From positions 4,965 through 68,964 of the forward strand of contig DASYSE010000102.1 of the NCBI GenBank assembly GCA_036003705.1: a stretch of 64,000 nucleotides of DNA. Reading direction: 5' to 3'. This document shows, in pieces, positions 38,415 through 55,598 of this stretch. The notes beneath the pieces are model-generated. The model was not told the origin of the DNA. It made no database searches and saw nothing but the letters and a program-made list of their open reading frames with translations. The DNA is from Actinomycetes bacterium. Lineage in GTDB: Bacteria > Actinomycetota > CALGFH01. Position numbers and translations under genes: made by a program. How positions within the stretch are numbered: the stretch's first letter is position 1; the number at the start of each line of letters is the position of its first letter.

Positions 38415-41400
38415 TCACCCGGCCGCCGGGGCGCCGGCGGTGGCGGCGATGCCGGCCTCGCTCAGGTTGCGGATCTCGCGTAGGGCGACCGACAGCATGG
38501 CGATGTCGAGCTTGTCGGCCTCCTTGAGGTCGGAGAGGATCGAGTTGGCCCGCTCCACCGCGGCCCGGTTCTCCTCGAGCCAGCCGTCGATCAGGGCGTC
38601 GGCGTCCCGGTCCCCGGTCCCCGGCTTCAGCACCTCCGCGGTCAGCTCGCGCTGCTCGGAGTAGAGGTCGTCGCGGAGCGCGCCCTGGGCGAGCGTCTGC
38701 CAGTGGGTCTCGGCCGGCAGCCGGGCGATCTGGTCGCGCAGCCAGTGCAGCTCCAGCTTGTAGCCGAGGGCGAAGTAGATGGCGGCGACCGCCTCGACCG
38801 TCTCGCCGCAGCTGGTGGCCACCTCGATCACGTTCAGGCCCGAGAACAACGCATCCAGGCTGGCCACCCGGGTGGCCAGCTCGGCCGGCACGCCCGCGGC
38901 GGTGAACCGCTCGGCCAGCCGGTCCAGCGACTCGGAGTCGGCCGGGGCGAGCAGCTTGGGCAGCTCCTGGCCGAGCGAGGCGATCCCGGGGGCGAAATGG
39001 GAGACGGTGGCGGCGATGTCCAGCGGCTGGCGCCGGTTGCGCAGGAACCACAGGGCCGACCGCTCGATCATCTTGCGCCCCTCGGCCTGCAGCTCGAGCT
39101 GGACGTCGGCCGGGACCACGTTGTCCAGCGTCGCCAGGTCCTTCCAGAGCCGGCGGATGTCGAACACCTCGCGGGCGACCGTGTAGGCCCGCGCGACGTC
39201 CGGCGGGCTGGCCCCGGTCTCGTCGTGCAGCCGGTTGGCGAAGGTGCTCCCGGCCCGGTTGACCATGCTGTTGGTGACGTAGGTGGCGATGATGTGGCGG
39301 CGCAGCGGGTGGCTGCGCAGCTGGCGGCGGAACCTCTCCCGCAGCTTCGGCGGCATGTAGCGCTCCAGGTCGTCGGCCAGGTAGTCGTCCTCGGGCACGT
39401 CGGAGGCGACCAGCTGGTCCTGGAGAGCGATCTTGGAGTAGGCCAGCAGCACCGCCAGCTCCGGACGGGTCAGGCCGAGGCCGGCCGCCCGGCGCTCCGC
39501 CAGCTCCTCGTTGTCGGGCAGGAACTCCAGCCGCCGGTCCAGCCGGTTGGACAGCTCCAGGCTGCGCATCAGGCGGTCGTGCTCGTCCAGCAGCTGCGGC
39601 GCCTGCGCCTCGGTGACGCTGATCGCCTGCACCTGACGGTAGTTGTCCTGCAGGACCGCGGTGGCGACGTCACCGGTCATGTCGGCCAGCAGCCTGTCGC
39701 GCTGCTTGCGGGTCATGTCGCCCTCGTTGACCACCTGGCTCAGCAGGATCTTGATGTTGACCTCGTGGTCGGAGCAGTCGACCCCGCCGGAGTTGTCGAT
39801 GAAGTCGGTGTTGATCCGGCCGCCCGCCAGGGCGTACTCGATCCGCCCGAGCTGGGTGAAGCCGAGGTTGCCGCCCTCGCCGACGACCTTGGCGCGCAGC
39901 TCGGCCCCGTCCACCCGGACGCCGTCGTTGGTGCGGTCGCCGACGTCGGCGTTGGTCTCGCGGGCGGCCTTCACGTAGGTGCCGATGCCGGCGCTCCACA
40001 GCAGGTCGACCGGTGCCTTGAGCATGGCGCTGATCAGCTCGTTGGGGGGCAGCGCCTCGGCCCGGAGGTCGAGCAGCCGGCGGACCTCGGCCGACAGCGG
40101 GATCGACTTGGCCGAGCGCGGCCAGACCCCGCCGCCCTTCGAGATGCGGCCGGTGTCGTAGTCGGACCAGGAGGAGCGGGGCAGCCCGAACAGGCGCCCG
40201 CGCTCGACGAAGCTGGCCTCCGGGTCGGGGTCGGGGTCGAGGAACACGTGCAGGTGGTTGAACGCCCCGACCAGCTTGATGTGGCGGCTGAGCAGCATGC
40301 CGTTGCCGAACACGTCGCCGGACATGTCGCCGATGCCGACGACGGTGAAGTCGGTGGTCTGGGTGTCGAGGTCCAGCTCCCGGAACAGCTGCTTGACCGA
40401 CTCCCAGGCACCCCTCGCCGTGATCCCCATCTTCTTGTGGTCGTAGCCGGCCGACCCGCCGGAGGCGAAGGCGTCGTCCAGCCAGAAGCCGTAGTCCTGG
40501 GCGATCGAGTTGGCCAGGTCGGAGAAGGTCGCCGTCCCCTTGTCGGCCGCCACCACCAGGTAGGGGTCGTCCCCGTCATAGCGCACCACGTCCGGCGGGG
40601 GGACGACCTTGCCCTCGACCCGGTTGTCGGTGATGTCCAGCAGCCCGCGCATCATCGTCGAATAGCAGGCCACCACCTCGTCCATCAGCGCCTCGCGGCC
40701 GCCCTCGACGGGTGGTCTCTTGACCACGAAGCCGCCCTTGGCCCCGACCGGCACGATGACGGCGTTCTTGACCATCTGCGCCTTCATCAGACCCAGGATC
40801 TCGGTGCGGAAGTCCTCCCGCCGGTCCGACCAGCGGATGCCGCCCCTGGCCACCCTGCCGCCGCGCAGGTGGACGGCCTCGGTCCGCGGCGAGTACACGA
40901 ACACCTCGAACATCGGCCGCGGCTTGGGCAGCGACGGCACCCTGCTCGGGTCCAGCTTGACCGACAGGTACGGCTTGGCCTGGCCGCCCTCGCCGGTCTG
41001 GTAGTGGTTGGTCCGCAGGGTGGCCTCGACCATGTCGAGGAAGCTGCGCAGGATCCGGTCCTCGTCCAGGTTGGCGACCCGGTCGATGGCCGCGGCCAGC
41101 TGCTCCCGCAGCCCCTCCTCCCGCGCCTCCATGCCCTGCGGCTGGGTCGGGTCGAAGCGGGTCTGGAACAGCTCGACCAGCAGGCGGGCGATCTCCGGGT
41201 GGCCGGCAAGGGCCTGCTCCATGTACTCCTGGCTGAAGGTCGGCCGGGTCTGTCGCAGGTACTTGCAGTAGGCGCGCAGGACCACGATCTGCCGCCAGGT
41301 GAGCCGCGCCCGCAGCACCAGCCGGTTGAAGCCGTCGCTCTCGGCCTCGCCGCGCAGGATGGCGGCGAACGCGTCCTGGAACACGTCGCGGACCCGGCTC

Positions 41401-43280
41401 AGGTCGAGGTCATTCTCGGTGCCGCCATAGGTCATGCCGAAGTCGTGGATCCAGACCGGGCCGTGGCCGGGCCGGTTGAGCGCGTAGGGCCGCTCGTCGA
41501 CGACCTCGACCCCCATGTCCTCGAGCATCGGCACCGCGGCCGACAGCGGCAGCGGCCGGTCGGTCCAGAACAGCTTGAACCGTAGCGTCCCCGTCGGCGC
41601 CTCCAGCGGCCGGTACAGGTTCATGTTCAGCCCGCCGCGGCTCTCCAGATCCTCCATCCGCTGGATGTCGTACACCGCGTTGCGGGCCGGGAAGTCGTCG
41701 AGGTAGGCGGCCGGGAACGCCTCGCCGTACCGGCTGAACAGCTCGTTGCCCTCCTCTTCGCCGTGCAGCTCCAGCAGCAGGGAGTGCAGCTCGTCGGACC
41801 AGGAGCGGGTCACCGTGGCCAGCTTGGCCTCCAGCTCCCTGGCGTCGTAGGAGGGCATCCGCCCGGGCGGCACCCGGATGATGAAGTGCAGCCGGGCCAG
41901 CACCGACTCCGACAGCCACACCTGGAAGTCGAAGCTCGCCCCAGGGAAGGTGTCGTGGAGCACCACCTCGATGCGCCGGCGCACGGTGGTGGTGTAGCGG
42001 TCGCGGGGCACGTAGACCAGGCAGGAGACGAAGCGGCCGTAGTTGTCGTGCCACATGAACAGGCGCACCCGGCGGCGTTCCTCCAGCCGCAGGATGCCCA
42101 TGGCCGTCTCGAACAGCTGGTCGTCGGAGATCTGGAACAGCTCGTCGCGCGGGAACGTCTCCAGGATGTTGAGCAGCGACTTCCAGTCGTGGCTGTACCT
42201 GGGCAGGCCGGCCCGTTCCAGCACCTTGGCCACCTTGCGGCGCAGCACCGGGATGTCGCGCGGGTTCCGGTTGTAGGCGGCCGAGGTGTACAGGCCGAGG
42301 AAGCGCCACTCGCCGACGACCTCGCCCTGCTCGTCGAAACGCTTGACCCCGATGTAGTCGAGGTAGGACGGCCGGTGCACGGTGGAGTGCGAGTTGGCCT
42401 TGGTGAGCACCAGCACGTGCGGTTCGCGGGCCAGCCGCCTGGCCTCCGGCGGGAGCTTGGCGAAGCTGCCCGACTCCGGCTTGGTCTGTCCCTGGCGCAG
42501 GATGCCGAGGCCGGTGCCCCTGACCGGCCGCAGCATGTCCTCGCCGTCCTCCTCCACCAGGTCATAGGCCCGGTAGCCGAGGAAGGTGAAGTGGTGGTCG
42601 TCGGTCCACTCCAGCAGCGCCCTGGCCTCGGCCAGCTCGGCCTCGTCGACCGGGGGCGGCCGCTCGGCGAACTCTCCGAGGATCCGCTGGACCTGCTCAC
42701 GCACGGCCGGCCAGTCCTCGACCGCGTTGCGAACGTCGACCAGGATCTTCTCGACCCCGCCCCTGAGCCGGTCGAGCACCTCGGGCTCGCTCTGCCGGTC
42801 GACCTCGAAATGCAGGAACGACTCGCGGATGCCGTCGTCGGCGTCGGGCGGCAGCACCTCGACCAGCTCGCCGGCCTGGTCGCGCCGGACGGCGATCACC
42901 GGGTGGATGGGCAGGTGGATGACCAGCCCGTGCCGGTTCAGCTCCATCGCCACCGAGTCGACCAGGAACGGCATGTCGTCGGTGACGATCTCGACGATGG
43001 AGTGCCTGGACCGCCAGCCGTGCTCCTCGAACCGGGGGCTGTACACCCTGACCTTGGCCTCGCCGGGCTGGCGACGCTGGGCCAGGCGCCAGTGGGCCAG
43101 GGCGGCGCCGTACAGGTCTTCGATCTCGAGCTCGACCAGGTCCTCGGGGGCCAGCCGGTGGTAGTACTGGCTGGCGAACGACTCCACCTGGTCGCGTCGC
43201 TTCTCGGGCACCTTCTCGTGGATGGTGGCGACGATCTGCTGCAGGATCTCCGCTTTCGCCCGCTCTGGCTGCGTCGACAT
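38415..43280 (-). CDS. gdhB: NAD-specific glutamate dehydrogenase (large, ~180 kDa GDH family)
   Basis: 1621 aa with the characteristic N-terminus MSTQPERAKAEILQQ... and a central ELFV-dehydrogenase catalytic domain (KGGIRW, VPVGAKGGFV). GAGGGAG RBS lies 7 nt before the ATG. It is convergent with and antisense to the his operon. Confidence 0.9.
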   Translation of the reverse strand: MSTQPERAKAEILQQIVATIHEKVPEKRRDQVESFASQYYHRLAPEDLVELEIEDLYGAALAHWRLAQRRQPGEAKVRVYSPRFEEHGWRSRHSIVEIVTDDMPFLVDSVAMELNRHGLVIHLPIHPVIAVRRDQAGELVEVLPPDADDGIRESFLHFEVDRQSEPEVLDRLRGGVEKILVDVRNAVEDWPAVREQVQRILGEFAERPPPVDEAELAEARALLEWTDDHHFTFLGYRAYDLVEEDGEDMLRPVRGTGLGILRQGQTKPESGSFAKLPPEARRLAREPHVLVLTKANSHSTVHRPSYLDYIGVKRFDEQGEVVGEWRFLGLYTSAAYNRNPRDIPVLRRKVAKVLERAGLPRYSHDWKSLLNILETFPRDELFQISDDQLFETAMGILRLEERRRVRLFMWHDNYGRFVSCLVYVPRDRYTTTVRRRIEVVLHDTFPGASFDFQVWLSESVLARLHFIIRVPPGRMPSYDARELEAKLATVTRSWSDELHSLLLELHGEEEGNELFSRYGEAFPAAYLDDFPARNAVYDIQRMEDLESRGGLNMNLYRPLEAPTGTLRFKLFWTDRPLPLSAAVPMLEDMGVEVVDERPYALNRPGHGPVWIHDFGMTYGGTENDLDLSRVRDVFQDAFAAILRGEAESDGFNRLVLRARLTWRQIVVLRAYCKYLRQTRPTFSQEYMEQALAGHPEIARLLVELFQTRFDPTQPQGMEAREEGLREQLAAAIDRVANLDEDRILRSFLDMVEATLRTNHYQTGEGGQAKPYLSVKLDPSRVPSLPKPRPMFEVFVYSPRTEAVHLRGGRVARGGIRWSDRREDFRTEILGLMKAQMVKNAVIVPVGAKGGFVVKRPPVEGGREALMDEVVACYSTMMRGLLDITDNRVEGKVVPPPDVVRYDGDDPYLVVAADKGTATFSDLANSIAQDYGFWLDDAFASGGSAGYDHKKMGITARGAWESVKQLFRELDLDTQTTDFTVVGIGDMSGDVFGNGMLLSRHIKLVGAFNHLHVFLDPDPDPEASFVERGRLFGLPRSSWSDYDTGRISKGGGVWPRSAKSIPLSAEVRRLLDLRAEALPPNELISAMLKAPVDLLWSAGIGTYVKAARETNADVGDRTNDGVRVDGAELRAKVVGEGGNLGFTQLGRIEYALAGGRINTDFIDNSGGVDCSDHEVNIKILLSQVVNEGDMTRKQRDRLLADMTGDVATAVLQDNYRQVQAISVTEAQAPQLLDEHDRLMRSLELSNRLDRRLEFLPDNEELAERRAAGLGLTRPELAVLLAYSKIALQDQLVASDVPEDDYLADDLERYMPPKLRERFRRQLRSHPLRRHIIATYVTNSMVNRAGSTFANRLHDETGASPPDVARAYTVAREVFDIRRLWKDLATLDNVVPADVQLELQAEGRKMIERSALWFLRNRRQPLDIAATVSHFAPGIASLGQELPKLLAPADSESLDRLAERFTAAGVPAELATRVASLDALFSGLNVIEVATSCGETVEAVAAIYFALGYKLELHWLRDQIARLPAETHWQTLAQGALRDDLYSEQRELTAEVLKPGTGDRDADALIDGWLEENRAAVERANSILSDLKEADKLDIAMLSVALREIRNLSEAGIAATAGAPAAG

Positions 43281-43358
43281 GACAGCTCCCTCGTGTGTCC
43301 GCCCTGCCCTTCAACCATGGCAGATCGGCCGGCCCGGCGGTAGCGATAGCATGGCCCC

Positions 43359-43811
43359 ATGTCCGAGCTCTCGACCGGGGCTGTCGACGACGCCGTCGCC
43401 GGCCTCGCCTTCGACGCCGCCGGCCTGCTCCCGGCGGTTGTCCAGGACGACACCGACGGCGCCGTCCTGATGGTCGCCTGGATGGACGCGGAGGCGGTCC
43501 GGCGCACCCTCACCACCGGCCGTACCTGGTTCTGGAGTCGTTCCCGCCGCCGCTACTGGCAGAAGGGGGAGACCTCCGGCAACGTCCAGCAGGTCCGTTC
43601 GGTGACCGCCGACTGCGACCGCGACTGTCTCCTCGTTCGGGTGGAGCAGGTTGGGCCGGCGTGCCACACCGGCACGCGAAGCTGTTTCAGCGACACGCTG
43701 GTGATCGCCGATGGTGCGCGGCTCGGGGATGTGACCTCGGGCCCGGTTCACCGGGGCGGCGACCCCGAGGCCCCCCAGGCGGACCCCGAGCGGGCGGGGG
43801 CCGGCTCGTGA
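43359..43811 (+). CDS. hisI: Phosphoribosyl-AMP cyclohydrolase
   Basis: [26 protein letters not shown]...[23 protein letters not shown]...CDRDCLL...CHTG. Confidence 0.85.
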
Positions 43812-45358
43812 CCGCCGCGCCTGGCGGCGTCCTGCCGGGGATCGAGGAGTTCGTGCGCCTGGCAGGGGAGCACTCGGTGGTGCCGGTCTGGCGGGAGCTG
43901 CTCGGCGACCTGGAGACGCCGGTTGGGGCGTTCCGCAAGCTCGGCGACCAGGACGGCTCGGTGCTGCTGGAGAGCGTCGAGCACGGCGAGCGCTGGGGCC
44001 GGTACTCGTTCATCGGCACCGACCCGTTCGCCACCCTGACCATCAGCGGCGGGCGGGCGTCGTGGACCGGCCGCCCCCCGGCCGGCCTGTCCGACGGGCC
44101 GCCGCTGGCGGTGCTCCGCGAGGCGCTGCGCCGGCTGCGCTCGCCGTCCCTGCCCGGGCTGCCGCCGCTGTTCGCCGGCGCCGTCGGCTACCTCGGCTAC
44201 GACCTGGTCCGCGAGCTGGAGCGCCTGCCCGACCAGACCGAGGACGATCTCCGGTTGCCCGACGGGGTGCTGGTCTTCCCCCGCTCGGTGGTCGTCTTCG
44301 ACCACCTCGGGCAGCGCCTGGTGCTGGTGGCCAACGTGGTCGTCAACCAGGCGACCGACCTGGACGCCGCCTTTGCCGACGCCTGCAGGCGCCTGGACGC
44401 CCTGGCCGCGCGGTTGTCGGTGCCGGTGGGGACGGTGCCGACCCCCCTGCCGGCGGCCGGCCCGCCGGCGGCCGCCTCCAGCGACCTGGCGCCGGGCCGC
44501 TACCAGGAGATGGTTCGGATCGCCAAGGAGCACATCCGGGCCGGCGACATCTTCCAGGTGGTCCCGTCGCAGCGGTTCTCGGTGCCGACCACCGCCGACC
44601 CGTTCGACGTCTACCGGGTCCTGCGGGTGGTCAACCCCTCCCCGTACATGTACTTCCTGCGCCTGCCGGGCGTGACCATCGCCGGCTCGTCGCCGGAGGT
44701 GCTGGTCACCGTCCAGGGTCGCCGGGCCACCATGCGGCCGATCGCCGGCACCCGGCCGCGTGGCGTCGACCAGGAGGCCGACCTGGCGCTGGAGGCCGAG
44801 CTCCAGGCCGACCAGAAGGAGCGGGCCGAGCACGTCATGCTGGTCGACCTGGCCCGCAACGACCTCGGCCGGGTCTGCCGGCCGGGCACCGTCAAGGTCG
44901 ACGACTTCATGCGGGTCGAGCGCTACTCCCACGTCATGCACCTGGTCTCCGACGTGACCGGGGAGCTGGCCGACGGGGTGGCGGCGTTCGACGTGCTGGC
45001 GGCCTGCTTCCCGGCGGGCACGGTGTCCGGGGCTCCCAAGGTCCGGGCGATGGAGATCATCGACGACCTGGAGCGCCACCGCCGCGGGCCCTACGCCGGC
45101 TGCGTCGGCTACTTCGACTTCTCCGGCAACCTCGACACCTGCATCACCATCCGGACGTTCGTGTTCGTGGACGGCGTCGCCTACTGCCAGGCCGGCGCCG
45201 GGGTGGTGGCCGACTCGGTTCCCGAGCGCGAGGAGCGCGAGACCGAAGCCAAGGCCGGCGCCCTGCTGGCCGCCGTCGCCGCCGCCCAGGCCCTCTCCGA
45301 CGCTCCATCGGCCCCCCGCGACGGCCATCGGCCGGCCGCCGCCCATGCCGGTGGCTGA
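43808..45358 (+). CDS. trpE: Anthranilate synthase component I
   Basis: Chorismate-binding enzyme motifs ([52 protein letters not shown]). The GTG overlaps the hisI stop. Confidence 0.9.
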
Positions 45359-46118
45359 CAACGGCCCCGCCGGCAGGGCGGACGGTCCAGCACCGGCCGG
45401 TCGGGGGGCCCCCCTGCGCGGCTCGGCTGGCAGGGCGGACGGTCCAGCACCGGCCGGTCGGGGGGCTCCCCCGCGCGGCTCGGCCGGCAGGGCGGACGGT
45501 CCAGCACCGGCCGGTCGGGGGGCTCCTCTGGGCGGCCCGGCGCCGCCGGCCCCCGAGCGGCGGTCGCTGCAGCTGGCCCTCGTGGCGGCGGTGGTCGGGG
45601 TGGGGCTGGCCGTGACCGGGGCAGGCCGGCCGTGGGCGACGGTCAGCGCCAACGTCGAGCTGCCCGGGCTCGGCTCGGCCCGGCTCGGCGCCGCCGAGGT
45701 CACCGGCAACGACCTGCTGCCCCTCGGCGGGCTCGCCCTGCTCGGGCTGGTGCTGCTGGTCGGGGTGGCCGTGACCAGGGGGCACGGCCGCTGGGCGGTG
45801 GGGCTGGCCCTGCTCGCCCTGGGCGGCGCCCTGGCCGTTGGAGCCGTGGTGGGCGGGAACCGGGTCGGCGCCGAGGCCGCCGAACGGGCCGAGCTCGGGC
45901 TGCTGGAGGGGGTGCCCGGCGGGACCGGCGTCCAGGTCGCCACCCCGAGGGCCGGCCCGGTCCTGGTCGTGGCCGGCGGCCTGCTGCTGGCCCTGGCCGG
46001 CCTGGAGGCGCTCCGGCGCGGGCCGCGCTGGCCGGCGCTCGGCGACGCCTTCCGGGCTCCGCCCGACCGCGTCCAGCCGGTCGCCGACCCCGGCGAGCCG
46101 CCCTGGGAAGGTGACTGA
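45345..46118 (+). CDS. Trp-cluster-associated polytopic membrane protein (TrpX-like, Rv1610-type), with a repetitive Pro/Gly/Ala-rich N-terminus
   Basis: Four hydrophobic helices. The position between trpE and trpC matches the conserved actinobacterial 'Trp region membrane protein'. It overlaps the trpE end by 14 nt. Confidence 0.5.
   Translation: MPVADNGPAGRADGPAPAGRGAPLRGSAGRADGPAPAGRGAPPRGSAGRADGPAPAGRGAPLGGPAPPAPERRSLQLALVAAVVGVGLAVTGAGRPWATVSANVELPGLGSARLGAAEVTGNDLLPLGGLALLGLVLLVGVAVTRGHGRWAVGLALLALGGALAVGAVVGGNRVGAEAAERAELGLLEGVPGGTGVQVATPRAGPVLVVAGGLLLALAGLEALRRGPRWPALGDAFRAPPDRVQPVADPGEPPWEGD
45372..45542 (+). repeat. 57-bp in-frame tandem repeat x3, encoding GRADGPAPAGRGAP(L/P)RGSA, within the trpX-like N-terminus
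   Basis: ggcagggcggacggtccagcaccggccggtcggggggc(c/t)cccctgcgcggctcggc(t/c) repeated three times. Confidence 0.8.
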
Positions 46119-46211
46119 CCAGGGACCTTACCGCCCTCGAACGAGGCGACCAGCGTCCCCGAACCTGCTCGGGCGATGCTACGGTCGGCCCAACGGCGGA
46201 AAGGGGACTGG

Positions 46212-46979
46212 TTGACGCCCGAGCACCCCTCCAAGGGGACCGTGCTGCTGGTCGAGGACGAGGAGTCCATCGCCGACCTGGTCCGGCTGTACCTGGAGCG
46301 CGATGGCTTCCAGGTGGTGTGGCGCACCGACGGCCCGTCCGGCCTGGCCGCGGTCGACGCCGAGCGTCCCCGGCTGGTGCTGCTGGACCTGATGCTGCCC
46401 GGCATGGACGGGTTCGAGGTGACCAGGGCGCTGCGCGAGCGGGGCGGCCGGGTGCCGATCATCGTGGTGACGGCCAGGGAGGAGGAGGCCGACCGGGTGC
46501 TCGGCCTCGAGCTCGGCGCCGACGACTACGTGACCAAGCCGTTCTCGCCCCGCGAGCTGGTGGCCCGCGTCAAGGCGGTGCTGCGCCGCGCCGAGCCCGA
46601 GCCGAGGGCCGGTCTGGAGCCGCCGCTGCACCTCGGCAGCCTCACCGTCGACCCGGCCCGCCACGAGGTCGTGTTCGAGGGCCGCCCGGTGCAGCTCACC
46701 GCCCGCGAGTTCGAGCTGCTCTGCTACCTGGTCCGCAACCGGGGCCTGGTCCTGACCCGGGACCAGATCCTCGAGCGCGTCTGGGGCTACTCGTTCCCGG
46801 CCGACACCCGGACCGTCGACGTCCACATCCGCCAGCTTCGCGCCAAGCTGGGTGAGCGCGCCCCCATCGCCACCATCCGCGGCGTCGGCTACAAGGCAGA
46901 GGACCGCGGGAGCGTCCCAGGCGCCCAAGGGGGGCCATCCATGGGGCCCGGCCCCCGGCCCGGGTCGGAGCAGGGCTGA
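46212..46979 (+). CDS. OmpR/PhoB-family two-component response regulator
   Basis: Receiver domain (LLVEDEE...DGFQVV...LVLLDLMLPGMDG...GADDYVTKPF) plus a winged-helix DNA-binding domain (LTAREFELLCYLVRNRGLVLTRDQILERVWGY...RTVDVHIRQLRAKL). Probable TTG start at 46212 after an AAAGGGGA RBS. The track's ATG at 46176 is an alternative. Confidence 0.85.
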   Translation: MTPEHPSKGTVLLVEDEESIADLVRLYLERDGFQVVWRTDGPSGLAAVDAERPRLVLLDLMLPGMDGFEVTRALRERGGRVPIIVVTAREEEADRVLGLELGADDYVTKPFSPRELVARVKAVLRRAEPEPRAGLEPPLHLGSLTVDPARHEVVFEGRPVQLTAREFELLCYLVRNRGLVLTRDQILERVWGYSFPADTRTVDVHIRQLRAKLGERAPIATIRGVGYKAEDRGSVPGAQGGPSMGPGPRPGSEQG

Positions 46980-48481
46980 TGGGGCGGGGCGGGGGGTCGT
47001 TGCGGGGACGGCTGGTGCTGGCGTTCGTGGCCGTCGCCGTCCTGGCCGCCGTGCTGATCGGGGTCATCACCCTGTCCCTGGTCCGCCTGGTGCCCGAGCG
47101 CGGCCTGGAGCGGCAGCTCGCCGACCAGGCGGTGGCCGTCACCGAGGCGGCCAACGGCCCGCCCCCTGCCCGAGGGGTGTGCGCGTTCGTCCGCGCCCTC
47201 CGGGTCGGCGACACCGAGGCGTACAGACTGGGCCGCAACGACCGGACGACCACGCCGCTCGCGGTCGCCTGCCAGCCACCCGGCCGCCGGCGCGGGATCC
47301 CCCTGGCCCCGGTCCCCGACATCGACCTGGCCGCCACCCTGGCCCGAGGCGAGGTCGTCAGCGGCACCAGCGACGGGCTGGCCTGGGCGGTCGCCCCGGC
47401 CGAGCGGGCCGTCCGCGGCGGCCGCGGCGGCGTGCTGCTGGTCCACGAGGTCCGCCGCCTCGGCGTCAGCCTGTTCCCGGTCGTCGCCTGGCGGCTGCTG
47501 CTGGCGACCGCCCTGGCCGTCGTGGTGGCGGCGCTGGTCGCCTGGCTGCTGGCCGGCCGGCTCACCGCGCCGCTCGGCCGGCTGGTCGCGGCCGCCCGCC
47601 GTGTCGGCGGCGGTGACCTGTCGACAAGGGTGCAAGTCGACGGCGACGACGAGGCTGCCGAGGTGGCCTCGGCCTTCAACGACATGGCCGCCGGCCTGGA
47701 GCGCGCCCAGGGCGAGCAGCGCGCGTTCCTGGCCAGCGTTGGCCACGAGCTCAAGACCCCCCTCACCACCATCCAGGGCTACACCGAGGCGCTGCTGGAC
47801 GGCACCGTCGAGGACCCGGCCGAGCGCCGCCGCTCGCTGGTCCGGGTCCACGCCGAGACCGTCCGCCTGGCCCGCCTCATCCAGGACCTGCTCGACCTGG
47901 CCCGCCTCGGCCGCGGCCAGTTCGCCGTCAGCACCGTCGACGCCGATGTCGGCGCCGTGCTGCGGGAGGCGGTGGCGGCGGCCACCGAACGGGCATCCCG
48001 GCGCGAGGTCACCGTCACCACCCGCCTCGCCCGCGTCCTCCACGCCCACGTGGACCCTGGCCGGCTCCGCCAGGTGCTGGACAACCTGCTCGACAACGCC
48101 ACCCGCTCCAGCCCCCCCGGCCGCCAGGTGCTGGTCGCGGCCAGGCCGCTGGACGGTGGCGGGGTTGAGGCGGCCGTGGTCGACCAGGGCCCCGGCATCT
48201 CGGCCGAGGACCTGCCCCACGCCTTCGACCGCGGCCATCTGTGGTCCCGCTACCGAGGCACCCGCGAGGTCGGTTCCGGTCTCGGCCTGGCGATCGTCAA
48301 AGCCCTCTGCGACGCCATGGGCGTCGCCATCCGCGCCGAGTCCGGGAACGGCGGCGGCACCGCCTTCCGCCTCATCCTCCCCCCGGCCCGCACCGCGCCG
48401 CCCAGCGGCGGCCCACCGATCGGCCCGACCACCCCGACCGAGCTTCCCACCCGCCCGCTGCCCCGAGCCCGCGGCCGATGA
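46979..48481 (+). CDS. Sensor histidine kinase (HAMP-HisKA-HATPase), partner of the upstream regulator
   Basis: Two TM segments, HAMP, H-box SVGHELKTPLTTIQGY, N-box LDNLLDNATRSS, and G-boxes DQGPGI / GSGLGLAIV. The ATG overlaps the regulator stop. Confidence 0.85.
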   Translation: MGRGGGSLRGRLVLAFVAVAVLAAVLIGVITLSLVRLVPERGLERQLADQAVAVTEAANGPPPARGVCAFVRALRVGDTEAYRLGRNDRTTTPLAVACQPPGRRRGIPLAPVPDIDLAATLARGEVVSGTSDGLAWAVAPAERAVRGGRGGVLLVHEVRRLGVSLFPVVAWRLLLATALAVVVAALVAWLLAGRLTAPLGRLVAAARRVGGGDLSTRVQVDGDDEAAEVASAFNDMAAGLERAQGEQRAFLASVGHELKTPLTTIQGYTEALLDGTVEDPAERRRSLVRVHAETVRLARLIQDLLDLARLGRGQFAVSTVDADVGAVLREAVAAATERASRREVTVTTRLARVLHAHVDPGRLRQVLDNLLDNATRSSPPGRQVLVAARPLDGGGVEAAVVDQGPGISAEDLPHAFDRGHLWSRYRGTREVGSGLGLAIVKALCDAMGVAIRAESGNGGGTAFRLILPPARTAPPSGGPPIGPTTPTELPTRPLPRARGR

Positions 48482-48547
48482 GGGACGAGCGTTGCTGAGG
48501 GGCGCTGGCTGCGAGCAGGCGGATCGGACGGACTAGAATCATCGCCT

Positions 48548-49411
48548 GTGACCTCGACCGGTTCCTTCCTTGCCCGGGCGGTGGCCGACGCCAGGTCGGA
48601 CGCCGAGCGCCGGGCGGCACGCCTGCCCCCTGCCGCGGTGCGGGCTGCCGCGGCGACCGCCCCGACCGCACGGGGGCTGCGGGCCGCTGTCGGTCGCGGG
48701 CCGGAGGGGCCCCGAGTGATCGCCGAGGTCAAACGCCGTTCGCCATCCAAGGGCGACATCCGCATCGACCTCGACCCGGCCGCCCTGGCCGCCGCCTACG
48801 CCGCCGGCGGCGCCTGCGCGATCAGCGTCCTGACCGAGCCGCGCCATTTCGCCGGCAGCCCCGCCGACCTGCTGGCGGCGCGGGCCGCGGTCGAGCTGCC
48901 GGTGCTCCGCAAGGACTTCGTCACCACCCCCTACCAGGTGTGGGAGGCGCGCGCCTGGGGCGCCGACGCGGTCCTGCTGATCGTGGCCGCGCTCCGGCCC
49001 GCCGAGCTCCGCGCCCTGCTCGACGAGACCGCCGAGGCGGGCCTGGACGCGCTGGTCGAGGTCCACACGGTGGCCGAGGCGGAGGCGGCCGCCTCCGCCG
49101 GCGCCAACCTGGTCGGGGTGAACGCCCGCGACCTGGCCACCCTCCAGGTCGACCCCGGCCGCTTCGCCGACGTCCGCCAGGCCCTGCCCGGCGGGACGAT
49201 CCTGGTCGCCGAGAGCGGCATCCGCGACCGCGCCGACGTGCAGGCGGCCGGCGACGCCGGCGCCGACGCCGTCCTGGTCGGCGAGGCCCTGGTCCGCGCC
49301 GACGATCCGACGAAGGCCGTCCGCGAGCTTCTTGCGTCGTCGGATCGTCGGGATGCGATGGACCGGCAGGGCGCAAGCGCTGCCACCGAGCCCGTTCCTG
49401 CTGAGCAATAG
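48548..49411 (+). CDS. trpC: Indole-3-glycerol phosphate synthase
   Basis: [52 protein letters not shown]. Confidence 0.85.
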
Positions 49412-49419
49412 GAGGACAG

Positions 49420-50727
49420 ATGGCCGCGCCCCGCAAGATCCTGCTCGGTGAGGACGAGCTGCCGACCGCCTGGTTCAACATCGTGCCCTCGATGCCGACC
49501 AAGCCCGATCCCTACCTGCACCCGCAGACCCGCGAGCCGGTCGGGCCGGACGCGCTGGCGCCGCTGTTCCCCATGGCCCTGATCGGCCAGGAGGTCTCCA
49601 CCGACCAGTGGGTCGACATCCCCGGTCCGGTGCTCGACACCTACAAGCTGTGGCGGCCGACCCCGCTGGTCCGCGCGCTCGACCTCGAGCGCGCGCTGGG
49701 CACCCCGGCCCGCATCTACTACAAATACGAGGGCGGGTCGCCGGCCGGCTCCCACAAGCCCAACACCGCCGTCGCGCAGGCGTTCTACAACAAGGCCGAG
49801 GGTATCGCCCGGCTCAGCACCGAGACCGGGGCCGGCCAGTGGGGCAGCGCCCTGGCGTTCGCCTGCGCCCGGTTCGGCCTGGAGTGCAAGGTCTACATGG
49901 TGCGGGCCTCCTACGACGGCAAGCCCTACCGGCGCTCGCTCATGGAGACCTGGGGGGCCAGCGTCATCCCGTCGCCGTCGCCGGAGACCAACGCCGGCCG
50001 GGCCGTCCTCGGCCAGCACCCCGACTCGCCCGGGTCGCTCGGCATCGCCATCTCCGAGGCGGTCGAGGACGCCGCCCTGCGCGAGGACACCCACTACGCG
50101 CTCGGCAGCGTGCTCAACCACGTGCTGCTCCACCAGACCGTCATCGGCCTCGAGCTGAAGGCGCAGCTCGAGCAGGCCGGCGTCGAGCCCGACGTGCTGG
50201 TGGCCTGCGTCGGCGGCGGGTCCAACTTCGGCGGCTTCACCTTCCCGCTGCTGGCCGAGAAGCTGGCCGGCCGCAGGAGCACCAGGGTCGTCGCGGTCGA
50301 ACCGACCGCGGCCCCGACCCTCACCGAGGGCCGGTTCGAGTACGACCTCGGCGACCAGGCCGGCATGACCCCGCTGCTGCCCATGTACACGCTGGGGGCC
50401 GACTTCATCCCAGCCCCGATCCACGCCGGCGGGCTGCGCTACCACGGCGACTCGCCGCTGGTGTCGCTGCTGCGCAAGGAGGACCACATCGAGGCCGTCG
50501 CCTACCCGCAGTCCAAGGTCTTCGAGGCGGCCGTGCAGTTCGCCCGCACCGAGGGCATCCTGCCGGCCCCCGAGCCGGCGCACGCGATCCGGGCCGTGAT
50601 CGACGAGGCCCTGCGCTGCAAGGAGGAGGGTCGCGAGGAGACCATCGTGTTCAACCTCTGCGGCCACGGCCACTTCGACCTCAAGGCCTACGAGGATTAC
50701 CTGTCCGGGAACCTCCTGGATGTCTGA
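49420..50727 (+). CDS. trpB2: TrpB2-type tryptophan synthase beta-like PLP enzyme (TrpB paralog)
   Basis: Long N-terminus [17 protein letters not shown]..., [29 protein letters not shown] (PLP lysine), [14 protein letters not shown]. Perfect AGGAGGA RBS. Its stop overlaps the next gene's ATG. Confidence 0.8.
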
Positions 50728-52066
50728 CCACGGCCCAGCCGGCATGGGGCACGGTCCGTCGGCGGCCGCCGGGCTGCAGGCCGACGACGGCCCAGCCGGC
50801 TTGGGGCACGCTCCGTCACCGGCCGCCGGGGTGGGCACGGCGGAGGTATTGCACCGGCCGGACCCGCTCGGGCACTTCGGCGCCTGGGGCGGGCGTTTCG
50901 TCCCAGAGGTGCTGATGGCCGCCCTCGACCAGCTCACCGACGCCTTCGAAGAGGCCATCGCCGACCCGGAGTTCGTGGCCGAGCTGGAGGCGTTGCGGCG
51001 CGACTACGCCGGCCGGCCGACCCCGCTGTTCCCGGCCAGGCGGCTGTCGCGGGAGCTGGGACTGCGGCTGTGGCTCAAGCGCGAGGACCTGCTCCACACC
51101 GGCGCCCACAAGCTCAACAACTCCCTCGGCCAGCACCTGCTCACCCGCAGGATGGGCAAGCCGCGGGTGATCGCCGAGACCGGTGCCGGCCAGCACGGCG
51201 TCGCCACCGCCACCGCGGCCGCCCTGCTCGGTCAGGAGTGCGTCGTCTACATGGGCGAGGAGGACACCCGACGCCAGCACCTCAACGTCGTGCGCATGCG
51301 GCTGCTCGGCACCGAGGTGCGGACGGTGGCCACCGGCACCGCGACCCTCAAGGACGCCATCAACGAGGCCCTGCGGGACTGGGTCGAGTCGGTCGGGTCG
51401 ACCCACTACGCCATCGGCTCGGTCGTCGGCCCCCACCCGTTCCCCCTCATGGTCAGGGAGTTCCAGCGGGTGATCGGGGACGAGGCCCGCGGCCAGATCC
51501 TGGCCGCCGAGGGGCGGCTGCCCGACCTGGCCGTGGCCTGCGTCGGCGGCGGGTCGAACGCGGCCGGGCTGTTCGCCGCCTTCATCGACGACGAGCCGGT
51601 TCGCCTGGTCGGGGTCGAGGCCGGCGGCCGCGGGCCCCAGCCGGGCCACCATGGGGCCTCGCTCGGCCTCGGCGAGGCCGGCGTGCTCCACGGCGCCCGC
51701 TCCTACCTGCTCCAGGACGCCGACGGCCAGGTCCTGCCCACCCACTCTGTCTCGGCCGGTCTCGACTACCCGGGGGTCGGCCCGGAGCACGCCTTCTGGA
51801 AGGACGCCGGTCGGGTCTGCTACGAGCGCGCCCTCGACACCCTCGCCCTCGACGGGTTCCGCCTCCTCGCCCGCACCGAGGGCCTGCTTCCCGCCCTCGA
51901 GCCGGCCCACGCGGTCGGCTGGCTCGCTCAGGCCGCCCGCGACGGCCGGGTCGCCCCCGGCTCCCTGGTCGTCCTCAACCTCTCCGGCCGCGGCGACAAG
52001 GACGTCGAGACCGTCTCCGCCCTGCTGGCCGACCCCGACCCTCCACCCGACCCTGCCGATGCCTGA
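50720..52066 (+). CDS. trpB: Tryptophan synthase beta chain (canonical TrpB1), with a repetitive ~40-aa N-terminal extension
   Basis: [38 protein letters not shown] (PLP lysine), [23 protein letters not shown]. The ATG at 50720 overlaps the trpB2 stop. Confidence 0.9.
50726..50839 (+). repeat. 57-bp in-frame tandem repeat x2 ([19 protein letters not shown] / [19 protein letters not shown]) at the trpB N-terminus
   Basis: gaccacggcccagccggcatggggcacggtccgtcggcggccgccgggctgcaggcc followed by a ~75% identical second copy. Confidence 0.75.
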
Positions 52067-52256
52067 CCCCGGACCGCCTGCACCCGCCCCCGGAGCCCCC
52101 GGCGGTCCGGCCGGGTTGGTCGACCAGGGCCCCCCATCCCCCGGTTCCGACCCCGGTGCCGTTGGTGACCCTGCCGGCTCGATGGCGGCGGCCTCCACAT
52201 CCCTGGGATCCCCCGGTTCCGCGGCGGCGGGGACCCGGCTGGGCGTGGCGGCCAGC

Positions 52257-53066
52257 ATGCCGGCGCCGCTGGAGCGGCTGGAGGGGCGGCTGGACCAGCT
52301 GCGGCGGGACGGGACGGCGGCCCTGATCGCCTACGGGGTCGCCGGGTACCCGGACCTGGACGGGTCGCTGGCGGCCTTCCGGGCGATGGCCCAAGCGGGC
52401 GCCGACGTGCTCGAGGTCGGCCCGCCCTACTCCGACCCGCTGATCGACGGGCCGGTCATCCAGCGGGCGGTCACCGCGGCGCTCGACGCCGGGACCCGCC
52501 TGGACGACGTCCTCGGCCTGGTCGACGAGCTGACCGCCAGCGTGGATGCGCCCGTGGTGCTGCTCGTCTACTACAACCTGGTGGCCCACCGCGGCCCCAG
52601 GCGGTTCGCGGCCGAGCTGGCCGCCGCCGGGGCCTGCGGCGCGGTCGTGCCCGACCTGCCGCCCGAGGAGGCGGGGGAGTGGCTGGACGCGGCCCGGGTG
52701 GCCGGGGTCGCCCCGGTGTTCCTGGCCGCCCCGACCTCCAGCGACGCCCGCCTGGCCGCGGTCGCCCGCTCCGGCCGGGGCTTCGTCTACGCCCAGGCGT
52801 CGCTGGGCGTGACCGGCCTGCGGGCCTCGCTGGCCGCCGGCATCGAGGACCTGGTCGGCCGGGTCCGCGCCCACACCGACCTCCCCGTCTGCGCCGGCAT
52901 CGGCGTCTCCACCGCCGAGCAGGCCGCCGAGGTGGCCAGGTTCGCCGACGGCGCCATCGTCGGCACCGCCCTGGTCCGCCGCCTCGGCGACGGCGGCCTC
53001 GACGGCCTGCGGACCCTCACCGCCGAGCTCGCCGACGCCGTCCACACCGCCCGCAGCCGTCGGTGA
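52257..53066 (+). CDS. trpA: Tryptophan synthase alpha chain
   Basis: ALIAYGVAGYPD, LEVGPPYSDPLIDGPVIQ, VLLVYYN, GAVVPDLPPEE, GFVYAQASLGVTG. The start is uncertain, with in-frame ATGs at 52182 and 52257. The track's 51651 start is a frame fusion over trpB. Confidence 0.85.
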   Translation: MPAPLERLEGRLDQLRRDGTAALIAYGVAGYPDLDGSLAAFRAMAQAGADVLEVGPPYSDPLIDGPVIQRAVTAALDAGTRLDDVLGLVDELTASVDAPVVLLVYYNLVAHRGPRRFAAELAAAGACGAVVPDLPPEEAGEWLDAARVAGVAPVFLAAPTSSDARLAAVARSGRGFVYAQASLGVTGLRASLAAGIEDLVGRVRAHTDLPVCAGIGVSTAEQAAEVARFADGAIVGTALVRRLGDGGLDGLRTLTAELADAVHTARSRR

Positions 53067-53091
53067 CCGCCGCGCGACCAGCCGCGAGCGC

Positions 53092-53280
53092 ATGGCATAC
53101 TGCCGGCGGCGGCGCGACGAGGAGGTCACCCGGCTGCTCGGGCTCGGGGCCACCCTGGTGGCCGACCGGCGGCAGCCCGACGGGACCGGTTGGGCCGTGC
53201 TGGCCGACCCCGAGGGCAACGAGTTCTGCGTTGAGCGCAGCGCCGCCGAACGGACCGCCGGTCCAGCCACCACCGGCTGA
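53092..53280 (+). pseudogene. C-terminal fragment (~60 aa) of a glyoxalase/VOC-family protein. Likely a gene remnant
   Basis: LLGLGATLVADRRQPDGTGWAVLADPEGNEFCV is the typical C-terminal beta-strand/loop of VOC proteins. No matching N-terminal part exists upstream, because the frame runs into trpA. Confidence 0.4.
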
Positions 53281-53308
53281 CGGCAACGCCGAATCCAGGC
53301 GTCCCCCC

Positions 53309-55357: not shown

Positions 55358-55488
55358 AGGTGAACCTCCGGTGGGTCGTCCAGGCGGAAGGGCATCGTAG
55401 CGGTGGCCACCGACCCTGCGGCGGCACCGTCCACAGATTCGCGCAAGCACTCGAACACGAGTTCGATGCACGTTAGATTCCTCGCGAG

Positions 55489-55576
55489 TGGTGCCCGAGG
55501 CGGGACTCGAACCCGCACGCCCTTTCGGGCAATCGCTTTTGAGGCGATCGCGGTTGCCGTAATTACGCCACTCGGG
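55489..55576 (-). tRNA. tRNA-Leu (anticodon CAA), type II with a long variable arm, CCA encoded
   Basis: Reverse complement: GCCCGAG-UG-GCG...CGC, anticodon stem AUCGC/GCGAU with loop CU-CAA-AA, a long variable arm, T-arm GGGUUCGAGUCCC, and acceptor CUCGGGC-A-CCA. 88 nt. Confidence 0.85.
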
Positions 55577-55598
55577 CTCGCCAGAGGAGGGTAGCGGA

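Follow-up and report, generated by a model that had tools for sequence, protein, structure and literature searches.

A probably autoregulated two-component system at the trpE-trpC junction of the tryptophan cluster in a clade of uncultured soil Actinomycetes

Organization of the trp cluster

The window analyzed here, a stretch of 64,000 nucleotides from an Actinomycetes bacterium, contains a set of tryptophan biosynthesis genes that all lie on the forward strand. The set begins with hisI (43359-43811), which encodes phosphoribosyl-AMP cyclohydrolase (PF01502 and NF000768 above cut-off), and is followed by trpE (43808-45358), which encodes anthranilate synthase I (PF04715 and PF00425, with TIGR00564 above cut-off) and has a GTG start overlapping the hisI stop codon (GTGA). 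The next gene (45345-46118), here called chp, overlaps the end of trpE by 14 nt and encodes an Rv1610-like membrane protein of the Trp_oprn_chp family (PF09534, 60.6 bits); the region encoding its N-terminus contains a 57-nt tandem repeat (45362-45541). Beyond chp lie the genes of an OmpR/PhoB-family response regulator (RR, 46212-46979; PF00072 and PF00486) and a sensor histidine kinase (HK, 46979-48481; HAMP, HisKA and HATPase_c domains in Pfam), followed by trpC (48548-49411; indole-3-glycerol-phosphate synthase, PF00218, 255.8 bits), a TrpB2-type gene for a TrpB-like PLP enzyme (trpB2, 49420-50727; NF009057, 711 bits against a cut-off of 366), the canonical tryptophan synthase beta gene trpB1 (50720-52066; TIGR00263, 562.6 bits) and the alpha gene trpA (52059-53066; PF00290, 253.9 bits). 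The N-terminal extension of trpB1 bears a 30-nt repeat (50738-50840). The trpB1 and trpA frames overlap by 8 nt, from the trpA ATG to the trpB1 stop, and the gene call for the related locus L038 has an identical overlap; this trpA start is uncertain, with an alternative at 52257. An Rfam scan of the window returned one tRNA only, with no riboswitch or attenuator.

The RR and HK genes are tightly linked. The RR stop codon TGA (46977-46979) and the HK start codon ATG (46979-46981) have one base in common (CTGATGG). The RR open reading frame (46176-46979) encodes 267 amino acids counted from its ATG, or 255 from the better-supported TTG at 46212, and the HK frame (46979-48481) encodes 500. The chp stop is separated from the RR ATG by 57 nt and from the TTG by 93 nt, and 66 nt lie between the HK stop and the GTG of trpC. 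The preliminary description of a translationally coupled, same-strand pair with spacers of 57 and 66 bp thus agrees with the open reading frames, the Pfam domains and the TGATG overlap. In GC and GC3 content the pair resembles the adjacent genes.

The backbone of the cluster, with Trp_oprn_chp after trpE, is that of the mycobacterial and streptomycete layout (hisI-trpE-Rv1610-trpC-trpB-trpA), and the gene order bears out the earlier view that the RR-HK pair is an insertion into an otherwise mycobacterial-type arrangement. The present clade differs from this layout by the RR-HK pair after chp and by the additional TrpB2 gene that separates trpC from trpB1. Downstream of trpA, an S9 peptidase gene takes the place of lgt, which follows trpA in mycobacteria and streptomycetes.

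The response regulator and the histidine kinase

All Pfam domains of the two proteins score above the gathering cut-offs. In the RR, the receiver domain (PF00072, 105 bits) has the acidic pocket E15/D16 together with D59, T87 and K109, so that the catalytic residues D59/T87/K109 are intact, and the C-terminal winged-helix domain (Trans_reg_C, PF00486, 94 bits) is present; the protein aligns over its full length to RegX3 and MtrA. The closest solved relative is RegX3 of Mycobacterium tuberculosis (218.9 bits over the full length), and MtrA scores 197 bits. The preliminary description had proposed for the RR a TTG start with a AAAGGGGA ribosome-binding site, different from the start of the open-reading-frame call, and this proposal is upheld by conservation. 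The relatives keep the TTG and an SD-like GAAAGGGG(A), and the ATG at 46176 is not conserved. In the window, a Shine-Dalgarno-like GAAAGGGGA (46199-46207) is located 4 nt 5' of the TTG within a purine-rich block conserved in the relatives, and the JGI gene call for the RR of L038 begins at the equivalent TTG. The ATG at 46176 falls within the putative -10 hexamer GATGCT described below.

The HK is composed of a first transmembrane helix (residues ~12-36), an extracytoplasmic domain (~37-164), a second transmembrane helix (~165-192), a HAMP domain (PF00672, 190-241), HisKA (PF00512, 68.8 bits) with the phosphoacceptor-position H256, HATPase_c (PF02518, 82.5 bits) and a proline-rich tail; the two helices correspond to hydropathy peaks at ~12-36 and 165-192. 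Its catalytic features are intact, including H256 and the N, G1 and G2 boxes (DNLLDNA, DQGPGI and GSGLGL). The extracytoplasmic domain shows a PDC/sCache-like (PAS-like) fold with a long N-terminal helix, a central antiparallel sheet and flanking helices, and it has two conserved cysteines, C68 and C98; residues 37-164 gave no match to a Cache/PDC family in Pfam. The sequence family of this sensor domain is restricted to the clade: a search of 1.84 billion representative sequences gave only 26 matches, all of them at clade level.

Several known systems resemble this pair in part. SenX3 has a cytoplasmic PAS domain and neither a HAMP domain nor a large extracytoplasmic domain, whereas the HK described here has two transmembrane helices, an extracytoplasmic PDC domain of ~125 residues and a HAMP domain, without a PAS match in Pfam. 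The RR has the same receiver and winged-helix architecture as RegX3 and is likewise an OmpR/PhoB-family regulator, whose probable binding site 5' of its target promoter consists of direct repeats that recur every ~10 bp. It was reported that the RegX3 site is GGTGCcaactGGTGA, with direct repeats of ~10-bp period (bioRxiv 10.1101/400960); the repeat sequence and the genomic context of the present pair are different. The HK follows the plan of MtrB, with two transmembrane helices, an extracytoplasmic loop, HAMP, HisKA and HATPase domains, but the sequence of the sensor loop is unrelated, and the 3' gene is trpC (or, in relatives, a VOC, ADH or TnpB gene) instead of lpqB. Among the NCBIfam equivalogs none reaches its cut-off with the RR: the best match, MtrA, scores 230.1 against 300, and PhoB (TIGR02154) 227 against 296.2. 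The HK scores 154.2 against 450 for MtrB and 156.6 against 334.2 for PhoR (TIGR02966). PhoR-PhoB differs further in its repeat sequence, and the neighborhood of the present pair contains no pst or pho genes.

Conservation of the locus and its predicted transcription units

The order hisI-trpE-chp-RR-HK-trpC-trpB2-trpB1-trpA is found in all 15 related metagenome or MAG loci that span the region, with HK identities that fall as low as 59%. The identities of RR and HK co-vary with those of trpE and TrpB2, which indicates vertical inheritance of the pair. The synteny comparison proposed in the preliminary description yields a pair that is consistently retained and narrowly distributed. In the related loci chp is the direct 5' neighbor of the RR gene on the same strand; in L008, 630 bp of unrelated DNA are inserted between the two. 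The close relative L040 has no RR-HK pair; its chp and trpC also carry frameshifting deletions, and it was set aside as unreliable, being either misassembled or in decay. The TrpB2 clusters of outgroup actinobacteria have other, unrelated genes (GCV_T-like, GH1 and DnaJ-like) between trpE and trpC. A two-component system (TCS) is close by in 3 of 50 outgroup loci, representing two lineages, which is not clearly above background. In these loci (L055, L080/L081), unrelated pairs adjoin trpB2 or trpC, one of them on the opposite strand. When they were compared with the window pair as possible orthologues, their sensor domains did not align, and their regulators shared 55-59% identity with the window RR, which looks about the level of RegX3 as estimated by eye; they were rejected as signs of an ancient TCS-trp linkage.

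The HK-trpC junction is variable. In five relatives (L002, L003, L041, L119 and L120) the two genes are separated by an opposite-strand VOC/glyoxalase gene, an IS605 TnpB gene or a Zn-ADH gene, so the unbroken same-strand order expected of one trp operon fails there. In four others (L009, L038, L007 and L121) the HK stop lies 0-34 nt from the trpC promoter or start, or overlaps it.

A scan of positions 43000-53600 (73-78% GC) for consensus sigma-70 promoters and terminators returned nothing useful. A putative -10 box, TAGCAT (43347-43352, + strand), is located 6 nt before the hisI ATG and is conserved in L038 and L002; it may represent a leaderless-type promoter of a hisI-trpE-chp unit. Before trpC, the -10 box TAGAAT (48534-48539, + strand) is located 8 nt upstream of the GTG. 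The pattern TA(G/C)AAT-N6-8-GTG/ATG is present at trpC in 17 of 17 loci with unconserved flanks, and it is constant whichever gene precedes (HK, VOC, TnpB, ADH or chp). We infer that this box is the own, leaderless internal promoter of trpC-trpB2-trpB1-trpA.

A third element precedes the RR gene. The sequence CTTACC-N4-TCGAAC-N16-CCGAAC (46127-46164, + strand) is conserved 5' of the RR and consists of direct repeats that form a putative RR binding site. Its core, TTxACx-N4-TCGAAC, occurs at the aligned position in the 10 loci inspected there and in three of four further loci scanned by regular expression (L119-L121). A separate regular-expression scan missed the elements of the window, L006 and L009 because their first hexamers deviate (CTTACC, TTCACG and CTTACC, respectively); L009 also lacks the third box, CCGAAC. 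Each locus with the element has a single copy, which invariably lies directly 5' of the RR gene, against a chance expectation of 0.04 per window, and in L008 it remains beside the RR gene despite the 630-bp insertion. Ten nucleotides past CCGAAC lies a putative -10 sequence of an RR-HK promoter, GATGCT, with an overlapping alternative TACGGT (46175-46185, + strand). A NANNNT hexamer is found at exactly this distance in all 12 loci that have the CCGAAC box (nine counted by eye and L119-L121 by regular expression; L009, which has no such box, is left out). This geometry, with 10 nt between the last repeat box and a -10-like hexamer, is of the PhoB type. The most likely target of the RR is the conserved set of direct repeats immediately 5' of its own gene, and the pair is probably autoregulated. 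The motif scan covered ~64 kb of the source genome and ~200 kb of the relatives' loci; apart from the RR promoter, only chance-level matches were detected in the window (with up to three mismatches) and in all clade loci, and no copy was found at the hisI and trpC promoters.

The folding of the HK-trpC spacer revealed no stable or terminator-like structure (z = -0.18). For the chp-RR spacer, a fold somewhat more stable than in shuffled sequences (z = -2.46) was obtained, with a short CCCG/CGGG hairpin; given such short pairing without testable covariation, the hairpin was not counted as a terminator. Separate units are favored over a single operon by the internal -10 boxes that are conserved at trpC (17/17) and at the RR gene, and the prediction is of three transcription units, of which two would be leaderless. 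The cluster accordingly does not look like a single operon, and the RR-HK pair appears to sit at the junction of two transcription units. In Streptomyces coelicolor, trpE and trpCXBA have been described as separate units (PMC5036795), and the division predicted here, with trpE in one unit and trpC to trpA in another, agrees with that description. Of the earlier proposal that the pair is embedded inside the operon, the position within the cluster stands; "operon" is too strong a word in view of the trpC box, the RR element, the interruptions between HK and trpC in five relatives and the missing RR motif at hisI and trpC. The proposal was to fall if the pair proved to be an independently transcribed unit with its own terminator and a regulon unrelated to trp. 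The evidence goes half of the way: it points to independent promoters, but no terminator was found after HK.

An autonomous module or an input to tryptophan synthesis

The explanation that we consider probable is that RR and HK form a functional, classical two-component system which is autonomous, probably autoregulated and passed on by vertical descent at a variable junction within the trp genes. The single PDC/sCache-like domain of the HK would receive an extracytoplasmic signal and pass it through the HAMP domain to the HisKA/HATPase core, where H256 would be phosphorylated; the HK would then phosphorylate D59 of the OmpR/PhoB-type, RegX3/MtrA-like RR, and the RR would bind the direct repeats 5' of its own gene to drive an autoregulated RR-HK transcript translated from the Shine-Dalgarno-led TTG. 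The pair may have been gained once by the ancestor of this clade of uncultured soil Actinomycetes and transmitted vertically since, at a junction that would divide hisI-trpE-chp from a leaderless trpC-trpB2-trpB1-trpA unit with a constitutive-type -10 promoter. Sequence ties between the TCS and the trp promoters were not found in the window or the clade loci, and the pair is best read as independent of Trp control. Between co-regulation with tryptophan synthesis and a regulator hitch-hiking in the cluster, both raised in the preliminary description, the trpC box in 17 of 17 loci, the RR's own element, the interruptions and the absence of the motif at hisI and trpC lean toward hitch-hiking. Some observations stand against the autonomous module. 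The place of the pair is strictly kept down to 59% HK identity although the flanking junctions were repeatedly rearranged, and this retention could reflect selection for linkage to the trp genes. The lack of a terminator-like structure after HK and the very short or overlapping HK-trpC junctions of L009, L038, L007 and L121 also count against it.

Coupling of the TCS to tryptophan synthesis through read-through is the strongest of the alternatives, though an unlikely one. Auto-induced RR-HK transcripts would run on into trpC-trpB2-trpB1-trpA and supplement the basal leaderless promoter, so that the late steps of Trp synthesis, or indole salvage by TrpB2, would follow the signal. RR-HK and trpC share a strand, and read-through is possible since there is no terminator after the HK, in the 66-nt spacer, and several relatives have no room for one; where the HK stop reaches to within 0-34 nt of trpC or overlaps it, RR-HK transcription must often enter trpC. 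The exact retention of place in 15 of 15 loci and the unrelated TCS pairs beside trpB2 or trpC in two other lineages point the same way. On the other hand, the five loci with a VOC, TnpB or ADH gene between HK and trpC keep the trpC promoter unchanged, which suggests that the coupling is dispensable, and the outgroup pairs are few, dissimilar in their sensor domains and in one case on the opposite strand. A more specific form, which we hold to be improbable, is that the TCS acts as a lineage-specific input to tryptophan metabolism, in which the clade-restricted PDC sensor would respond, for example, to indole, to some aromatic compound or, via the two conserved cysteines, to a signal from the envelope or of redox state, with read-through into trpC-trpB2-trpB1-trpA and possibly with participation of the Trp_oprn_chp membrane protein. 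If this is true, the signal would act on the last steps of Trp synthesis and on indole salvage by TrpB2, on top of expression from a constitutive leaderless promoter.

It is slightly less probable still that the TCS works with or regulates chp, for instance with the chp protein as an accessory or co-sensor of the HK, or that the RR controls hisI-trpE-chp directly. The chp gene is always the next gene upstream on the same strand, chp and HK are both membrane proteins, and accessory membrane proteins or lipoproteins are encoded beside other actinobacterial kinases, as in MtrB-LpqB and CseA-CseC. However, chp accompanies trpE in actinobacteria without a TCS at that place, as with mycobacterial Rv1610; the hisI promoter region has no copy of the RR motif; and L008 tolerates its insertion between chp and RR. 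A relocated clade orthologue of SenX3-RegX3 (phosphate sensing) or MtrAB is very improbable: the RR is nearest to RegX3 (about one residue in two identical, as judged by eye) and MtrA, the latter also its best NCBIfam match, but the equivalog cut-offs are widely missed, the periplasmic PDC plus HAMP arrangement is unlike SenX3, no lpqB lies downstream, and the repeats TTxACC/TCGAAC differ from the RegX3 site.

To our knowledge, actinomycetes have no TrpR, TRAP or T-box system for Trp biosynthesis, and their Trp regulation is poorly understood for this reason; for the same reason, a sensory input to the trp genes would deserve attention. A literature search on TCSs in or controlling actinobacterial trp clusters, and on Rv1610, found nothing relevant. 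The analysis corrects the RR start codon and provides a candidate operator for the RR, which is a directly testable prediction. It also calls for caution, as gene order alone can mislead on what is "inside the operon" in actinobacterial trp clusters. The comparison of the loci suggests a conserved yet autonomous signaling module parked in an insertion-tolerant junction.

Organization of the trp region

The window has a GC content of 70-80% and a backbone made up of a conserved actinobacterial gene set (dcw/ftsZ, ileS, dnaE, hisD, and others). The gene order of the region was read from the ORF listing and profile searches. On the forward strand, hisI (43359-43811) is followed by trpE (43808-45358), which starts at a GTGA overlapping the hisI stop, and by the gene of a Rv1610-like Trp_oprn_chp membrane protein (chp, PF09534, 45345-46118). 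Next come an OmpR/PhoB-type response regulator (RR, 46212-46979, TTG start, Response_reg and Trans_reg_C) and a histidine kinase (HK, 46979-48481, HAMP, HisKA and HATPase_c), with one base shared between stop and start (TGATG). The cluster continues with trpC (48548-49411), a TrpB2-type paralogue (49420-50727; NF009057, 711 bits), canonical trpB1 (50720-52066) and trpA (52059-53066). The RR-HK pair in the trp cluster, and its spacers of 57 nt before and 66 nt after, had been reported in the preliminary description; the ORFs, profile searches and intact residues showed the pair to be real and accurately described, and both spacers are correct, the 57 nt being counted to an ATG at 46176.

An S9 prolyl-oligopeptidase-type gene and tRNA-Leu(CAA) (53309-55577, reverse strand) lie convergently past trpA, a feature of the clade of uncultured soil actinomycetes that contains the window; in mycobacteria and streptomycetes, the gene after trpA is lgt. 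Divergent from hisI, a reverse-strand gene (38415-43280) encodes a 1,621-aa NAD-specific glutamate dehydrogenase (Bac_GDH family according to the annotation of the related locus L038), which keeps 87-89% identity in close relatives. The TrpB2-trpB1 tandem (49420-52066) lies between trpC and trpA, and the order trpC-trpB2-trpB1-trpA is common to the whole clade. In three more distant, high-GC loci (L055, L099, L105) trpC-trpB2 is kept with other genes ahead of trpB1, and at most other loci the TrpB2 gene is isolated. In the cytoplasmic N-terminus of the chp protein the segment PAGRADGPAPAGRGAPxRGS is repeated, encoded by a 57-nt tandem repeat (45362-45541, 3.2 copies, 91% match); the expansion is recent, since the chp genes of L038, L119 and L120 are short (181-183 aa) and lack it. 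The N-terminal extension of trpB1 carries a looser 30-nt repeat (50738-50840), and in L121 trpB1 and trpA are called as a single 728-aa gene (9797-11983, PALP and Trp_syntA), which may be a true fusion or an artefact of sequencing or gene calling.

The two proteins and their inheritance

The start of RR was judged from an alignment of the sequence ahead of the gene in seven relatives. Conservation extends to the TTG at 46212, which lies behind a purine-rich GAAAGGGG block, but not to the ATG at 46176, and this supports the TTG start proposed earlier; L007 has a nearby in-frame ATG instead, and the JGI gene call in L038 begins at the equivalent TTG. The resulting 255-aa protein has intact catalytic residues (D59, T87, K109), as does HK (H256; N, G1 and G2 boxes). 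About 125 extracytoplasmic residues of HK lie between two TM helices. A search of 1.84 billion 50%-identity representatives with the sensor sequence (residues 1-195) gave only 26 matches, nearly all in-clade, marking it as a clade-specific sensor. Within the sensor domain (47066-47470, residues about 37-164), 35 homologues show little or no variation at C68 and C98 (C44/C74 in alignment A1), which may pair in a disulphide of structural or redox function.

HK has over 1,000 close homologues, nearly all of them found in metagenomes or in soil MAGs labelled "Actinomycetes bacterium". The loci compared were nine species-level genome representatives (HK 59-93% identical), one 130-kb JGI contig, three TrpB2-ascertained contigs and four additional contigs. 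The order chp-RR-HK, then trpC-trpB2-trpB1-trpA, was found in every locus covering the region (16 counting the window), with the exception of L040. The identities of RR, HK, trpE, trpC and TrpB2 drop in step, locus by locus, and the GC and GC3 of RR-HK are like those of the adjoining genes. Together with the synteny, these observations indicate vertical inheritance from the clade ancestor, not recent acquisition, and the placement within the trp cluster is stably inherited in this clade. In L040, a 4-kb contig (1-4164), the ~2.45-kb RR-HK segment is cleanly missing, leaving ~30 nt between the chp stop and the trpC promoter; this locus was given no weight because of frameshifting deletions within chp and trpC. 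It is ~90% identical to L039, with a 17-nt sequence (GGGAGGGAGACTGAAGG) directly duplicated at the junction, and may represent either a mis-assembly or a trp locus in decay.

Putative promoters and transcription units

A TA(G/C)AAT hexamer lies 6-8 nt ahead of the trpC GTG/ATG in 17/17 loci, including L040 (TAGAAT-N8-GTG in the window, 48534-48550). Beyond it the sequence is unconserved, and the upstream gene may be HK, VOC/glyoxalase, IS605 TnpB, Zn-ADH or chp, which argues that trpC probably has its own promoter. A -10 hexamer so near to a start codon marks the leaderless transcripts of actinobacteria, as in mycobacterial and streptomycete TSS maps. The arrangement at hisI is similar (TAGCAT-N6-ATG, 43347-43361); both genes lack a Shine-Dalgarno sequence, whereas RR has a clear one, which suggests heavy use of leaderless mRNA in this organism.

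RR is preceded by TTYACC-N4-TCGAAC-N15/16-CCGAAC and, after exactly 10 nt, a NANNNT hexamer (46127-46180). Alignment places the core TTxACx-N4-TCGAAC at the corresponding position in all 10 loci inspected there, and a strict regex found it in three of four further loci (L119-L121; L122 missed). Slight variation in the first hexamer occurs in L006, L009 and the window, and the CCGAAC box is missing from L009. Each locus with the element has a single copy, always directly upstream of RR (chance expectation, 0.04 per window); L008 is no exception, although its chp and RR are separated by 630 bp of unrelated DNA.

The HK-trpC junction is occupied by a VOC gene on the opposite strand in L002 (11628-12056), L003 (3591-4058) and L120 (7427-7852), VOC and TnpB in L041 (1520-3208), and Zn-ADH and VOC in L119 (7636-9202); gaps of 300-500 nt occur in L004, L008 and L122. 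The VOC/glyoxalase gene is small; TnpB (IS605 family, OrfB_IS605 and a Cas12f1-like TNB domain) and the Zn-dependent alcohol dehydrogenase each occur in a single locus. Genes of quite other kinds, among them a GCV_T/YgfZ-like gene and genes for a GH1 glucosidase and a DnaJ-domain protein, lie between trpE and trpC in TrpB2-containing clusters of more distant actinobacteria, and S. coelicolor is described as having trpE and trpCXBA in separate units (PMC5036795); the junction is thus variable and insertion-tolerant. The trpC promoter, the RR element and the repeatedly broken HK-trpC junction argue that the cluster would not be one operon and that the two-component system would be a unit of its own.

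Relation to tryptophan biosynthesis

Between the co-regulation and hitch-hiking left open in the preliminary description, the putative separate promoters and the broken junction favour the latter, and RR-HK is probably an autonomous module. An extracytoplasmic signal would act on the PDC domain of HK and pass via HAMP to H256, from which a classical phosphorelay would lead to D59 of RR; phosphorylated RR would bind the direct repeats ahead of its gene and so autoregulate. The half-sites have a 10-bp period, with a third box two helical turns further along, ending 10 nt ahead of the -10 hexamer of a promoter without a -35. This putative site has the geometry of the PhoB pho box. The RegX3 site also consists of direct repeats (5-bp, with a 5-bp spacer), but the repeat sequence is not the same (bioRxiv 10.1101/400960).

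Against co-regulation, the RR motif was not found at the hisI or trpC promoter regions, elsewhere in the window or elsewhere in the clade loci. At trpC only the -10 box is retained while all upstream sequence changes, a pattern difficult to square with an activator site upstream. Coupling by read-through from RR-HK into the trp genes, an unlikely explanation overall, is the only route to Trp control that the sequence supports. The preliminary description held that an independent unit with its own terminator and a regulon unrelated to trp would contradict a trp role: conserved elements do precede RR and trpC, but the 66-nt spacer has no terminator-like structure. In L009, L007, L038 and L121 the distance from the HK stop to the trpC -10 box or start codon is 0-34 nt, or the two overlap, and read-through into trpC must occur in these genomes. 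Both points count against full independence of RR-HK, yet the route is dispensable in the five relatives that are interrupted between HK and trpC. A reading of the pair as acting through read-through or indole sensing is quite unlikely.

OmpR-type pairs lie near trpB2 or trpC in two other lineages, L055 (opposite strand) and L080/L081 (3/50 outgroup loci, not convincingly above background). Their sensor domains are unrelated to that of the window HK, and their RRs are 55-59% identical to the window RR, seemingly no closer than RegX3 (the RegX3 figure being by eye). A partnership with the neighbouring chp is very unlikely. A relocated system of RegX3 or MtrA type is most improbable: M. tuberculosis RegX3 is closest to RR (218.9 bits, identity near one half as judged by eye) and MtrA second, but RR falls below every NCBIfam equivalog cut-off (MtrA 230 vs 300, PhoB 227 vs 296), as does HK (MtrB 154 vs 450, PhoR 157 vs 334).

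Literature searches returned no precedent for, or study of, a two-component system in such a trp arrangement; the kind of system is itself already very well known. The evidence points to an RR-HK pair that resides at a permissive junction, where one trp transcription unit meets the next, rather than to an operon-internal Trp regulator.
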